Assembly: GCA_016840095.1 (NCBI GenBank)
Contig: JAEOSZ010000089.1
Coordinates: 1 to 64,000, forward strand
Length of the DNA: 64,000 bases
Reading direction: 5' to 3'
Source: Candidatus Heimdallarchaeota archaeon
GTDB taxonomy: Archaea > Asgardarchaeota > Heimdallarchaeia > Heimdallarchaeales > Heimdallarchaeaceae
Under the pieces are notes generated by a model. It was not told the DNA's origin and did not search any database. It saw only the letters and a list, made by a program, of their open reading frames with translations. Below are positions 47,971 to 53,045 of this stretch, in pieces. Position numbers and translations under genes: made by a program. Positions within the stretch are counted from its first letter, which is position 1, and every line of letters begins with the position of its first letter.

Positions 47971-48238
47971 TATTACACTTATGCAGTAATGTATATATAT
48001 GTATATCTCACGGTAAATATTTCCTATAGATGAAATATTACTGCAATATAAATCAGTTATTAGGTAAAAATTGCCACCAATTCAATAATTTTTTAATTCT
48101 GTTTTGTCTTGTTATTGGGCGCAAATGCGTAGTTAAACGTTTTTGTCATGCCTAATGACTGCATTTTTATTACTGCAAAAAGCGGCAATATATTACTGCA
48201 CAAAGGCCTTTAAATAGGTTGCTGCACAATGCAGTAAT
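47971..48238. promoter_or_regulatory. Divergent promoter with repeated operator ATTACTGC-N5-GCAGTAAT
   Basis: Palindromes at 48169-48189 and 48218-48238 (the latter just after TATA TTTAAATA, 48209-48216); half-sites at 47983, 48037, 48155, 48192. Confidence 0.75.
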
Positions 48239-48264
48239 AACTACAAAAATCCTGAGGTGGAAAA

Positions 48265-48453
48265 ATGCAAACAACTGAAATAAAAAAACTGCTGGATCCC
48301 GAGGTTCGAAGGCTTTACGAGGATCTCAACAAGCTCATGAAATCTCTGACTAAGAGATATTCAGACAAAAAAGTGGATGTATATGAGCAATACTTAGCTG
48401 AATCAATTCGCTACTATTCAAGTTTGAACCTGAGGAGATATGCAAACATTTGA
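48265..48453 (+). CDS. Microprotein (62 aa), first gene of operon 1
   Basis: GAGGTG RBS, downstream of TATA and operator. Confidence 0.7.
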   Translation: MQTTEIKKLLDPEVRRLYEDLNKLMKSLTKRYSDKKVDVYEQYLAESIRYYSSLNLRRYANI

Positions 48454-48463
48454 GGTATAAAAA

Positions 48464-48610
48464 ATGTATGAAAATGAATCTATTATTATGTTGGATCGAA
48501 AGATCAGGGCACTCCGAAAGGAGTTGAATAGGCTCAAAAGAGCTCGTCGAAGTAGAAGAGCAAAAGCTCGTTCTAGATATCCGGTCAGACAATATCTGGT
48601 TTACGGATAG
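48464..48610 (+). CDS. Arg-rich coiled-coil microprotein (48 aa), not in the ORF track
   Basis: MYENESIIMLDRKIRALRKELNRLKRARRSRRAKARSRYPVRQYLVYG; GAGGT RBS; ungapped paralog at 50778. Confidence 0.8.
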   Translation: MYENESIIMLDRKIRALRKELNRLKRARRSRRAKARSRYPVRQYLVYG

Positions 48611-48646
48611 GATATTATCTACCAATAGAAAATTGAGGTGAAAAAG

Positions 48647-48907
48647 ATGGCATCGAAAGTTCAAGTAGAAGCAGTTCGTCAGATAGTAATTGACAATATG
48701 AAGATCTTATATGATTTTGAATTCATAGATGAAGATCTCTATTACACATTCCTAAAGCAATTGATGGAAGGATTATCAGAGATAGATGAGAAGAAATCCA
48801 AACCTGATAAAGAGATATCCAAGGAAAGTTTAGAAAGTGAAATAAGAAAAGCTAAAGATAAAGCTATTGCCCAAAAGCTACTGCTATTTGGATCACTTTA
48901 CTATTAG
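48647..48907 (+). CDS. Microprotein (86 aa)
   Basis: GAGGTG RBS before ATG 48647. Confidence 0.7.
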   Translation: MASKVQVEAVRQIVIDNMKILYDFEFIDEDLYYTFLKQLMEGLSEIDEKKSKPDKEISKESLESEIRKAKDKAIAQKLLLFGSLYY

Positions 48908-48933
48908 AATCCTAAATTAGAAAGGTGAAAAAA

Positions 48934-49122
48934 ATGGCAATAAAATTTGAAACAAAACTAAAACTGCAAGTCATTTTAAGGGGACTTGTAACATTGTTTC
49001 ACTCTCCCTCTCAAAACAAGAAGAAGAATACAAATTCCAGGAGAGTTATGGAAGAGATAAAGAAACGTAAAACCAAAGAGTTAGAAGATTATCTTTTCCT
49101 TTCTAGATATGGGGGGCTTTAA
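48934..49122 (+). CDS. Basic microprotein (62 aa)
   Basis: AAGGTG RBS before ATG 48934; followed by a hairpin and T7. Confidence 0.7.
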   Translation: MAIKFETKLKLQVILRGLVTLFHSPSQNKKKNTNSRRVMEEIKKRKTKELEDYLFLSRYGGL

Positions 49123-49201
49123 GTGCATCCCCTTTTTTTCTCTTCTTCTGTCATAATTAATGAGATAAACCAAAATGAAAACTTATTGGAGGTGAATAAG
49201 A

Positions 49202-49582
49202 ATGGTAAAATCCGTTAAAGAATTATTGAGATTGGATAAATCTGGACCTGATATAAACTTTAGTAGATTAATGCTAGTAGTTTTACCAATGCTATTAGCT
49301 TTGATAGTATCACTAGCAAGTATGAACTTGGCCAGTGAAAATGTACTAGCAGCAGTAGATCGTCCTGAAATAGAAGTCATTCGAACTGTTGATGATTATG
49401 CTCCAAGTCATGAATTAATTCGTACTGATGTCGTAGAACGTCCAGAGAGTAATTTGATTCGAACAGATTCTGCAAATAGACCTGATAACAACTTAATTAG
49501 AACTGTAGCGGGAAATAGTGCAGATGTTGTGGTAATCAGAGCATCTACAGATTCTATGGATGTGAAATTAGTTAGAAATTGA
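49202..49582 (+). CDS. TM-anchored protein with ~6 13-aa RPxxxLIRT repeats
   Basis: GGAGGTG RBS; TM helix; repeats DRPEIEVIRT/ERPESNLIRT/NRPDNNLIRT. Confidence 0.78.
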   Translation: MVKSVKELLRLDKSGPDINFSRLMLVVLPMLLALIVSLASMNLASENVLAAVDRPEIEVIRTVDDYAPSHELIRTDVVERPESNLIRTDSANRPDNNLIRTVAGNSADVVVIRASTDSMDVKLVRN

Positions 49583-49639
49583 TATGTGGAAGGTTCTTGT
49601 AAAATGATCTTTTCCTTTCAAATTTTTTTAAAAAAGAAA

Positions 49640-49776
49640 ATCATGCTGATTGTTTCTTTCTGAAACATTCAATATACAGATTTCACCACCAGGATGGGAT
49701 CAGGATGACCAAACCAATCAGCTATCTCCCTTGCTAACAAAACAGTTTGGTCTTTCTGCTCCCACAAGGGTGAGAT
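49640..49776 (+). ncRNA. Putative structured cis-regulatory RNA, copy A
   Basis: 33/40 nt identical to 51274-51313, shared GGATCAGGAT, long hairpin 49695-49764. Confidence 0.6.
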
Positions 49777-49797
49777 TAAAAAACCGAGGTGACATAA

Positions 49798-51181: not shown

Positions 51182-51273
51182 GATTTAGAAAAGTGAGTAA
51201 ATCCCTTTTCTTCTTCTTATTCTTCTTGCATTTATGATTATAACCTGACTAACCAAAAAAATGGTTGGTCATT

Positions 51274-51438
51274 ATCACGCTGATTGTTTCTTGCTGAAGC
51301 ACTCATTACGCAGCAATCAGTCTGCTGAGGATCAGGATTTGGGCAAAGATGAAAATTGTGTGCGGCTTGTTTTCATCTTGCTCTCCTGAACCTACTCAAC
51401 TGGGGAATACTCTGCTTCCTCTAGCAGAGTATTAAACC
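51274..51438 (+). ncRNA. Putative structured cis-regulatory RNA, copy B
   Basis: Conserved 40-nt block, long hairpin 51328-51393, perfect 11-bp hairpin 51406-51433. Confidence 0.6.
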
Positions 51439-51463
51439 CTGAATAAAAAGAGGTGAAAAAAGA

Positions 51464-51613
51464 ATGATTTCGAACATAAGTCAGATAAAAAGAAAAGCTA
51501 GAATGGAAAAAACATTGTCCTTTATTGGTAGATTTTTAGCTTACCTAATCCCTATATGTGTATTAATTATTGTAGGATTATACTCCTTATCTGCTGTATC
51601 TCAGTCATTTTAG
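51464..51613 (+). CDS. 49-aa membrane peptide, not in the ORF track
   Basis: MISNISQIKRKARMEKTLSFIGRFLAYLIPICVLIIVGLYSLSAVSQSF; GAGGTG RBS. Confidence 0.78.
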   Translation: MISNISQIKRKARMEKTLSFIGRFLAYLIPICVLIIVGLYSLSAVSQSF

Positions 51614-51643
51614 GAATTATGCTGAAAATTAGTCCTTAATTCA

Positions 51644-51667
51644 TTTTTTTTTTTTTTTTTTTTTTTT
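51644..51667 (+). terminator. T24 homopolymer ending operon 2
   Basis: 24 consecutive T, 30 nt after the stop codon. Confidence 0.5.
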
Positions 51668-51772
51668 GAATCTTCAACGTTTGACTCAGAAGATTCTTGT
51701 CTGTACAATAGTGATTTTATCCTTTTTTTACCTAAGAAATATTTTATATACCTGCATAAACGCATAGGGTTC

Positions 51773-52021
51773 ATGGTTGCAATTGTAGTATTGTATGGTA
51801 CTTCTTGGTGTCCAGATGTACACCGCTCAAGGAAGTTTTTAGACCAAAAAGGTATATCTTACAAATATATTGATGTTGATCAAGATGAACACGCAGCTCA
51901 AACTGTAAGAGATATGAATGATGGGAAAAGAAAAGTACCTACAATTGTTTTTACAGATGATACCATTCTGGTTGAACCTTCAAATAAGGAATTAGCTTCA
52001 AAATTAGGGATTCAAGCCTAA
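51773..52021 (+). CDS. Glutaredoxin/mycoredoxin-like protein with a single active-site Cys
   Basis: YGTSWCPDV, VPTIVFTDDTILVEPSN. Confidence 0.88.
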   Translation: MVAIVVLYGTSWCPDVHRSRKFLDQKGISYKYIDVDQDEHAAQTVRDMNDGKRKVPTIVFTDDTILVEPSNKELASKLGIQA

Positions 52022-52134
52022 ACTCCTAGTTTGAGGGAACAATTTAAATATTGAGAGATTTCTCTCTTCATGTTGCTGAAGAGATACCTTAATATGTAGG
52101 TATAGCTTCAAACATAATAGCAAGAGGTGTCATC

Positions 52135-52611
52135 ATGCCTAAAATATCCGATGCCGAAAAATCATTTATTCGTTCTATTGCTAGAAGATATGCAATGGGA
52201 TTGTGGGTTTCTCCTTTTAATGAAGGTTTACTAATTTATTCAGAAACCTTTGAAGCACTATACATAAGATCTGCTAGGTGGAAGTTTTGTCTTAAATGCG
52301 GTACTATAGAACCTACAGAGCTAATGGTTGATGATGGGGAACTCAGCAGTGATAAATATACGGAAAAGAAAAAGTCAGAATTAAGGGAGAGAATCCATGA
52401 ATGTACATTGGGTGTAAATCATTTTCCGGTTTTAATAACTACCTCCTGGTACAAACTTAGAGATTTCTTCATGTCTAAGAAACATATAAGAGCTCTTGAA
52501 AATGCTGGAGTAACTGATAAACCTGAACAGCTACCAATCATTCGTGAAATCTTTGAAGTTGCTGAGAAAAACAACTTACCAGAAGCAATTAAGATTGGGG
52601 AGACTTCGTAG
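52135..52611 (+). CDS. CxxC...HxC zinc-finger protein, paralog P3
   Basis: RSIARRYA, RWKFCLKCG, HEC, FPVLITTSW; GAGGTG RBS. Confidence 0.8.
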   Translation: MPKISDAEKSFIRSIARRYAMGLWVSPFNEGLLIYSETFEALYIRSARWKFCLKCGTIEPTELMVDDGELSSDKYTEKKKSELRERIHECTLGVNHFPVLITTSWYKLRDFFMSKKHIRALENAGVTDKPEQLPIIREIFEVAEKNNLPEAIKIGETS

Positions 52612-52642
52612 AAGTAGGAAATTATCTCCTCCCTTTCTATAT

Positions 52643-52999
52643 TTAGACCTTATTTGTCTCTTTGTTCAAATTTTGAACCCCTTTTTTCTCTAGAATTTTC
52701 AAATAATCGTCTTTTAAAAAGAAATTTCGTAGTCTTATCCAGGATGTCGAAACCTTATTCTGAATCTTGTGAAAAGAAACTGGAGGACAATCATGATTGT
52801 TAATAATAAACTCGTTAGGTAGACCGATTTTTCCACAAATTAAACAATATCTCCATCTAGCAGATCGACTATAGAGCATTCTAAAAACCTCATAATATAT
52901 CTGAGAACCATTTTTGAATGAAAGTTTAGCCATTAATTTGCTGAATTGAACTGCTATAACTCTAATTTCTTCCTTTTCTTTATCTGGAATGTCAGGCAT
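52643..52999 (-). CDS. CxxC...HxC zinc-finger protein, paralog P4
   Basis: RSARWRYCLICG, HDC, TSWIRLRNFF. Confidence 0.78.
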   Translation of the reverse strand: MPDIPDKEKEEIRVIAVQFSKLMAKLSFKNGSQIYYEVFRMLYSRSARWRYCLICGKIGLPNEFIINNHDCPPVSFHKIQNKVSTSWIRLRNFFLKDDYLKILEKKGVQNLNKETNKV

Positions 53000-53011
53000 T
53001 TCTCATTCAAC

Positions 53012-53045
53012 TATTACTTAAACAAAGTAATAAGAGGATATAAGT
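53012..53045 (-). promoter_or_regulatory. Operator and TATA box of P4
   Basis: Perfect TATTACTT-AAACA-AAGTAATA (53012-53032) between a minus-strand TTATAT box and the start codon. Confidence 0.65.

Follow-up and report, generated by a model that had tools for sequence, protein, structure and literature searches.

Group-specific palindromes at the TATA boxes of an orphan zinc-ribbon gene family in a Heimdallarchaeota lineage: candidate operators for local autoregulation

The 64,000-nucleotide stretch of Candidatus Heimdallarchaeota DNA analyzed here (the window; contig C85, positions 1 to 64,000, of genome G000, an assembly of 3.44 Mb in 165 contigs with ~33% GC) encodes four paralogous small proteins, P1 to P4, in which the putative zinc ligands C-x2-C ... 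H-x-C are invariant by alignment. Three additional copies of the family were located in the same genome by tblastn: P5 at C85:65229, slightly beyond the window's end, and, on contig C47, P6 and P7. Most of these genes have a two-armed palindrome (dyad) set against their own TATA box, as do two neighboring operons of small proteins. The comparative data make it probable, in our judgment, that the zinc-ribbon proteins are autoregulating, locally acting repressors and that the dyads are the operators to which they would bind as dimers.

Open reading frames (ORFs), alignment, and a tree of orthogroups define P1 (47519-47944, minus strand, 141 amino acids [aa]), which is divergent from the first string of small ORFs (module 1, 48265-49947); P2 (50063-50482, plus strand, 139 aa), which lies 5' of and on the same strand as a partly paralogous second string (module 2, 50778-51613); and P3 (52135-52611, plus strand, 158 aa), which has a 19-residue insert in the zinc ribbon and belongs to the orthogroup with the highest conservation in the family. 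P4 (52643-52999, minus strand, 118 aa) is fast-evolving and is decaying or deleted in relatives. Most of the small ORFs in the modules look like real genes, since they vary in relatives with a codon-position pattern and without indels.

Footprints were taken from alignments of 5 to 7 congeneric genomes at ~75% DNA identity (7 for the P1/module 1 intergenic region); syntenic loci, at ~73-83% identity, were those of G008, G009, G010, G012, G013, G018, and G024. Between P1 and module 1, the conserved islands were the half-sites, the TATA boxes, and a 13-bp box, and the DNA between them was scrambled. The seven arm units of module 1 were invariant at 50/56 positions versus 29% of the other intergenic columns, and the rest of the intergenic DNA ranged from 24 to 29%. 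Across six sites in both modules, arms were invariant at 78/96 positions (81%) versus 8/30 (27%) for spacers (Fisher p = 7e-8), and the module 2 and P2-promoter alignments had the same arm/spacer pattern as module 1. Lone half-sites, in either orientation, were conserved as fully as the arms of dyads. Invariant arms, free spacers, and conserved lone half-sites are together what a dimeric DNA-binding protein predicts and an RNA hairpin does not. The palindromes are non-random and under selection.

At the promoters of module 1, module 2, P1, P2, P4, and P6, a dyad begins 0 to 5 bp beyond a TATA-like box (1 to 5 bp for the five of these in the window). Because transcription in archaea usually starts ~25 bp from the TATA box, sites so placed would cover the predicted initiation region and would be largely untranscribed. 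At P1, a dyad at 47970-47990 (ATATTACA-N5-GCAGTAAT, with the core ATTAC-N9-GTAAT at 47972-47990) lies immediately downstream, in the P1 direction, of a TATA-like AT run (47992-48001, minus-strand promoter). In 7 genomes its right arm is invariant at 7/8 positions and its left arm at 4/8, and it encloses an exact half-site, ATTACTGC, on the minus strand (47983-47990). The same half-site stands alone on the plus strand at 48037-48044 (8/8 invariant in 7 genomes) and at 48192-48199 (8/8 invariant), the latter between site A and the putative TATA box of the module 1 operon (TTTAAATA, 48209-48216, plus strand, 7/8 invariant, assigned by sequence). Site B (48218-48238; GTTGCTGC-ACAAT-GCAGTAAT; arms 14/16 invariant, spacer 2/5) is situated between this box and the predicted operon start, the first ORF beginning at 48265. 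Site A (48169-48189; ATTACTGC-AAAAA-GCGGCAAT) has a P1-type left arm and a right arm, G.GG..AT, that is kept even in lineages with another half-site type (e.g., G001); it is a hybrid whose right arm is a separately conserved element.

Dyads also follow the TATA boxes of P2 and module 2. The P2 TATA box (CTTTATAA, 50011-50018, plus strand) is followed by a dyad at 50021-50041 (ATGTAGGA-CTTAA-TACTACAT), and the TATA box of the module 2 operon (TTTATATA, 50720-50727, plus strand) by one at 50730-50750 (ATGTCGCA-CTTCG-TCCTACAT; arms 15/16 invariant, spacer 1/5), again ahead of the predicted start (first ORF at 50778). A perfect dyad that is unique genome-wide (ATGTCGCA-N5-TGCGACAT, 50657-50677) lies 43 bp 5' of that TATA box, likewise with 15/16 arm positions and 1/5 spacer positions invariant, and a degenerate site at 50524-50544 combines a weak left arm with a strong right arm, GGCGACAT. 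At P4, a perfect dyad (53012-53032; TATTACTT-N5-AAGTAATA, also with the core ATTAC-N9-GTAAT) is 5 bp downstream of the TATA box (ACTTATAT, 53038-53045, minus strand). The element at P3 is tentative: ATGTAGGT-N6-TCAAACAT (52094-52115) runs into the last bases of the TATA box, TTAATAT (52089-52095), its left arm is P2-like, and its dyad symmetry is limited to the outer ATGT...ACAT. The initial annotation, which had placed a site directly downstream of TATA at each promoter, was thus correct for module 1, module 2, P1, P2, and P4, and all of the sites that it listed were recovered; the fourth of its module 1 half-sites (ACTGCAT, ~48158) proved to be degenerate and not conserved.

Two other conserved inverted repeats occur near the module 2 promoter. 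One, at 50627-50649 (GGTGTGTA-N6/7-TACACAC), ends 8 bp before the perfect 50657 dyad; its arms change jointly in G013 (TGTGCA...TGCACA), as would be possible for either a further protein site or a hairpin. The other, TGTGAA-N4-TTCACA at 50748-50767, falls in the predicted 5' leader of module 2, where it shares its first bases with the 50730 dyad and extends to a Shine-Dalgarno-like GGTGA.

Palindromy alone is weak evidence because inverted repeats are common in AT-rich DNA: in the 5.3-kb stretch 47901-53200, 8-N-8 repeats with one mismatch numbered 4 to 9 per spacer length. The strong evidence is that the same arms recur. ATTACTGC has 168 copies in the 3.44-Mb assembly, 5 of them inside 47983-48238 (~250 bp), and ATGTCGC has 59 genome copies, 4 of them inside 50538-50737 (200 bp). 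In an all-8-mer control, nearly all other equally dense clusters were tandem repeats within genes, the ATTACTGC cluster being among the few exceptions. Scans for full 8-5-8 sites led back to the same locus. Sites of the ATGTCGCA type with ≤2 mismatches were found genome-wide only at 50657 and 50730; two of the four ATTACTGC-type sites were local (48169 and 48218); the single best genome match to the ATGTAGGA type was the P2-promoter site at 50021; and the sole perfect TATTACTT-type site was that at P4. The remaining near-matches had no promoter context, and 3/5 were within long open frames. The genome-wide scan for further sites that the initial annotation had proposed therefore yielded best full matches only here and no comparable sites elsewhere in the assembly, so that the implied regulons would be local. 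A chance origin of the sites was rejected on the half-site clustering, the 8-mer control, and the full-site scans.

Within the genus the family was universal (24/24 genomes sampled), and it was found in none of 16 genomes representing three sister families in that order. When 5.8 billion proteins were searched through a word index, 103 members were recovered, all close; profile searching of 1.84 billion representatives, done exhaustively, returned 23 clusters, all of them the family itself, with no remote relatives; and no relative was found among viral contigs (IMG/VR). Close homologues are annotated only as "hypothetical protein" and derive from metagenome-assembled genomes of Candidatus Heimdallarchaeota/Heimdallarchaeaceae. 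A maximum-likelihood tree resolved the orthogroups P1, P2, P3, P4, P5/P6, and P7, each across several species, and the orthogroups are older than the species.

Operator type followed this classification when the 75 nucleotides upstream of >70 family members were tabulated. All nine P2 orthologs had ATGTAKG.-N5-..CTACAT after the TATA box, with a variable spacer, a type retained throughout the genus; P6 had a nearly invariant TTATTAT-ATGTGTCA-N7-GTACAC.T in seven genomes; and P5-like genes had variants of ATGT[AG]...N...[CT]ACA. The half-site of P3, ATGT[AC]GGT, overlaps the TATA box and is dyadic in its outer bases alone, and P7 has no promoter of its own. P1 genes in deeper lineages (G001, G003, G015, G021, and G023) had dyads of the ATGT[CA].T.-N5-GATTACA type, and those of the window's clade (eight genomes) had ATTACTGC. 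At the module 2 operon, the sites in G001, G016, G020, and G023 resembled ATGTC[GT]GA-N5-TC[AC]GACAT. A dyad at the gene's own TATA box was thus seen for P1, P2, P5/P6, and, in some lineages, P4, and more weakly for P3. The upstream regions of orthologs, which the initial annotation had pointed to as a check, had dyads at nearly every ortholog with its own promoter, weak ones in the case of P3. The family-wide design is a dyad abutting the TATA box, usually with outer ATGT...ACAT, in which the inner bases and the spacing (N5, N6, or N7) are group-specific.

The P1 operators changed in place, at several equivalent half-sites at once. When the module 1 core promoters of G000, G009, and G013 were aligned with those of G001 and G023, the TATA box, spacing, and order of elements were the same in all five, but the equivalent half-sites read ATGTCATC, ATGTAATC, or ATGTCGTC in G001 and G023 versus ATTACTGC in the clade of G000; the G001 site is ATGTCATC-N5-TATTACAT. 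The branch leading to P1 in the window's clade is long (0.44), and this P1 differs from the older type at ~15 conserved positions. The concerted switch from ATGTCATC to ATTACTGC in one clade fits a protein and an operator that have evolved together. In their ancestral form the arms of P1 and P2, both ATGT-type, share 5/8 bases versus 3/8 for the present arms of G000, and this divergence would fit selection for insulation. Loss of the operators in more distant congeners, where exact G000-type half-sites are not clustered at promoters, was also considered and set aside, as repeat and palindrome scans found replaced motifs at the same positions.

The initial annotation had described three different palindromes, each next to a different paralog, and had proposed autoregulated dimeric proteins of diverged, orthogonal specificity. 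The motifs are real, the operator tracks the orthogroup, and the dyads lie at the paralogs' own TATA boxes, but orthogonality was overstated. The palindrome at P4 does not amount to a third code of its own because it shares both core and spacing, ATTAC-N9-GTAAT, with the P1-promoter site (these two are among 14 genome sites of that form); the site at 48169 is a hybrid; and the P1 and P2 types were ancestrally both ATGT-type. We infer that cross-regulation between P1 and P4 is as likely as orthogonality.

The picture of three motifs had also overlooked a fourth element that both modules share. The 13-bp box occurs on the plus strand as GGTAAATATTTCC (48012-48024, 5' of the P1 TATA; 9/13 invariant), GGTAAAAATTGCC (48063-48075), GGAAATTTATGCC (49987-49999, 11 bp 5' of the P2 TATA), and GGTAAATTTTGCC (50560-50572). 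Its shared form, GGNAAWWWWTKCC, is a quasi-palindrome (GGYAA-N3-TTRCC) with 29 genome copies, 4 of which fall within 2.6 kb here, all on the plus strand and all kept in relatives; the form in G001 is a perfect GGCAA-N3-TTGCC. The boxes stand just 5' of the P1 and P2 TATA boxes and beside lone half-sites.

The presumed regulators are small proteins with a metal-site signature. CxxC...HxC is intact in 35/36 aligned members. An AlphaFold2 (AF2) model of P2 from a 36-row alignment (predicted local distance difference test [pLDDT] 80; predicted template modeling score [pTM] 0.70) was confident in its core and predicted helices at 3-22 and 25-39, a zinc-ribbon-like insert at 46-81 with short strands around both knuckles, helices at 83-90 and 94-101, and a disordered tail. 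Basic residues are concentrated in the conserved first helix (I-R/K-S-R-A-R-R) and in the knuckle (R-x-R/K-x-C-L-K-C-G), and the core has a pI of 8.8-9.6 in P1, P2, and P4. Residues that might set specificity are helix-2 positions 33, 37, and 40 and the loop that follows the final zinc ligand (70-75 in P2). A two-copy complex prediction for P2 residues 1-110 scored 0.12 against a mark of 0.42 and was used neither for nor against dimerization; the argument for self-association is the dyad symmetry of the sites. The label of zinc-finger transcription factor is an interpretation of ligand pattern, charge, and genomic context.

As we envisage the mechanism, each paralog would bind a two-armed operator of ~8 + spacer + 8 bp, probably as a dimer. 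Occupied between the TATA box and the expected start, the operator would block recruitment of RNA polymerase at the protein's own promoter, and P1 and P2 would also block the promoters of the neighboring module 1 and module 2 operons. The upstream sites (48169 and 48192; 50657; 50524) and the lone half-sites might add cooperativity. Specificity would lie in the inner arm bases and the spacing, with proposed codes of ATGT[CA]G[GC]A-N5 for P2, ATGT[CA]ATC-N5 for ancestral P1, ATTACTGC-N5 for P1 of the window's clade, ATGTGT-N11-ACACAT for P5/P6, and ATTAC-N9-GTAAT for the P1 and P4 promoters of G000. A dyad abutting the TATA box at nearly every paralog with its own promoter fits both autoregulation and the known archaeal mode of repression.

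Several observations weigh against this reading. Pfam gave no match above the cut-off (best E = 0.012, Terminase_6, and 0.11), NCBIfam no family match, and a profile sequence search of the PDB nothing better than E = 0.36. Foldseek of the AF2 model against the PDB found no match at E ≤ 0.001, all hits having E > 1 (the top row, TFIIE-alpha at E = 1.7, is not significant, and rubredoxin rows were at E ~7-8). A wide VIA-align search of the PDB found generic helical bundles only (best Z 5.0, including two POU-domain rows at Z ~4), and a fold search of the ESM atlas gave TM-scores ≤ 0.36; a feature search of the protein atlas gave a best score of 0.79, to unnamed clusters. The CxxC...HxC family is an orphan, specific to Heimdallarchaeota, with no recognizable DNA-binding domain or fold. 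On the DNA side, the dyad at P3 is weak, P7 lacks its own promoter, the 48169 site combines two arm types, and the shared box, placed 5' of the TATA boxes of P1 and P2 and beside lone half-sites, points to at least one further factor or binding mode. The P4 palindrome, moreover, is not conserved across the genus: the P4 promoters of G012 and G013 have a different perfect dyad, TTTGTAC-N10-GTACAAA, in the same place, and those of G001 and G023 have no clear dyad equivalent. P4 itself is the least stable family member (copies in relatives at L023:2486-2848 and L024 ~2544). Its identity between G000 and G013 is only 61%, the His and second Cys pair are lost in G013, the N terminus is broken in G012, and the gene is missing from G008, G010, G018, and G024.

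Some other protein could be the one that binds the dyads, and the most suitable candidates are encoded in the modules themselves. Both modules encode paralogous 48-aa Arg-rich peptides (48464-48610 and 50778-50924), predicted to form coiled coils and with weak leucine-zipper-like Pfam hints (E ~0.01-0.1), which could bind DNA in place of the zinc ribbons; that the latter have no known DNA-binding fold, and might be RNA binders or adaptors instead, favors these peptides or an unlinked regulator, and the shared box indicates further recognition events in the same intergenic regions. The peptides are a weaker proposition because the P4, P5, and P6 promoters, which have no adjoining small-ORF module and no 48-aa gene nearby, bear dyads of the same design. 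Operator type, furthermore, tracks the zinc-finger orthogroup across species, and the zinc-finger gene is the sole gene common to all dyad-bearing promoters. We consider it unlikely, on balance, that a different binder accounts for the dyads.

A role for the palindromes in RNA, as hairpins of leaders, terminators, or processing sites, is suggested by their position near the 5' ends of genes and by the hairpin-like repeats close by (50627-50649 and 50748-50767). We nevertheless find this very improbable. Sites between a TATA box and the expected start would be mostly untranscribed; arms are invariant and show no compensating pair changes; isolated half-sites are equally conserved in both orientations; imperfect palindromes (48218 and 50730) retain their mismatches across genomes; and Rfam gave no match on 47000-53500. 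The tandem duplication of the modules, together with half-sites reiterated in both orientations, might alternatively have left terminal inverted repeats, invertase or integrase sites, or origin-like iterons, but modules 1 and 2 bear different motifs rather than copies of one, the sites keep their synteny and their distance from TATA boxes in at least 7 genomes, the family has no match in viral contigs, and no recombinase, transposase, or Orc1/Cdc6 gene was seen among the ORFs of 46000-56000. Recombination or mobile-element sites are accordingly the most remote of the explanations considered. A replication origin was rejected in the same way, no initiator gene or supporting feature having been seen.

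Operator binding by the zinc ribbons themselves would place the locus within a familiar archaeal scheme. MDR1 of Archaeoglobus, LrpA and Phr of Pyrococcus, and the TrmB family occupy DNA immediately past the TATA box and so prevent RNA polymerase from being recruited; for MDR1, LrpA, and Phr, the established repressor position falls between TATA and the start of transcription. The dyads here resemble those operators in lying between the TATA box and the predicted start, in the adjacency of the regulator gene, in the site on its own promoter, and in the extra upstream sites. Unlike those regulators, which have DtxR, Lrp, or winged-helix-turn-helix folds, the candidate here is a zinc ribbon of ~110 aa with no detectable relative. 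The divergence of the module 1 regulator from its operon, with several reiterated operators between, recalls the immunity regions of lambdoid phages (cI-OR-cro), and paralog-specific operator codes on a common half-site frame, with apparent co-evolution of protein and operator, recall the LacI/GalR and TetR families. The present locus differs from these phage and repressor systems in its chromosomal location, in its synteny and presence across the genus without a link to viruses, in having archaeal TATA promoters, and in that no helix-turn-helix is recognized. With small archaeal zinc regulators such as Brz of Halobacterium and the zinc-ribbon proteins TFB and TFE, the candidate has in common its small size, its CxxC-type metal site, and its presumed transcriptional role, yet no sequence or fold similarity was found, Brz itself being outside the comparison. 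The layout is that of a classic archaeal repressor and its operator; the carrier is an orphan protein of an Asgard lineage with no known fold.

To our knowledge, transcription regulators of Asgard archaea are almost entirely without experimental characterization, and our literature search on Heimdallarchaeia transcription factors, zinc, and promoters found nothing relevant. This small locus lends itself to testing, since the orphan family comes with predicted targets of 21 bp and with specificity controls provided by paralogs and by orthologs with switched operators. If binding is true, it would define a new DNA-binding fold, provide a clean natural case of regulator-operator co-evolution and insulation after duplication, and identify the controller of conserved operons of small proteins and single-transmembrane (TM) peptides in both modules. 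A more ambitious version, which we entertain as possible while placing it short of probable, is that a new zinc-ribbon DNA-binding fold radiated within one Heimdallarchaeota lineage into 6 or 7 insulated repressor/operator switches and that related genomes preserve the complete re-coding of P1 along with its operators, all half-sites in one intergenic region having changed from ATGTCATC to ATTACTGC. Such a re-coding series, if true, would be a natural stepwise record of paralogous Asgard regulators becoming orthogonal.

Several features of the genes and their surroundings were recorded in addition. P1 starts with ATG in G000 and G009, at the same codon that is TTG or GTG in six relatives (L023:7497-7922, L024:7300-7698, L026:1755-2153, L029:4294-4719, L031:623-1021, and L025:18-446). 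A TPR-like protein of ~640 aa is encoded beside P5 (L001:5229-7713, equivalent to C85:65229-67713, with P5 upstream on the same strand) and beside P6 (L002:6901-9383 on contig C47, with P6 divergent), and paralogous DEAD-box helicases lie near the window's cluster (53284-54579) and the C47 locus (L002 10712-11953); these neighbors at both loci suggest an old segmental duplication. Glutaredoxin-family genes (Pfam PF00462) flank the modules on their outer sides, at 47256-47513 (E = 3e-11) and 51773-52021 (E = 5e-14), and a run of 24 T at 51645-51668, directly 3' of the last module 2 ORF, resembles an archaeal oligo-T terminator. Each module also encodes, in the same relative place, a TM protein with short internal repeats: xxLIRT in a 126-aa ORF (49202-49582) and FNRPVWII in a 69-aa ORF (50972-51181), neither with a full-length nucleotide match found in relatives. 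A similar stretch (GCTGATTGTTTCTT.CTGAA...) precedes both of the 49-aa single-TM ORFs, at ~49640-49680 and 51274-51310; it is kept in relatives and may be a structured leader.

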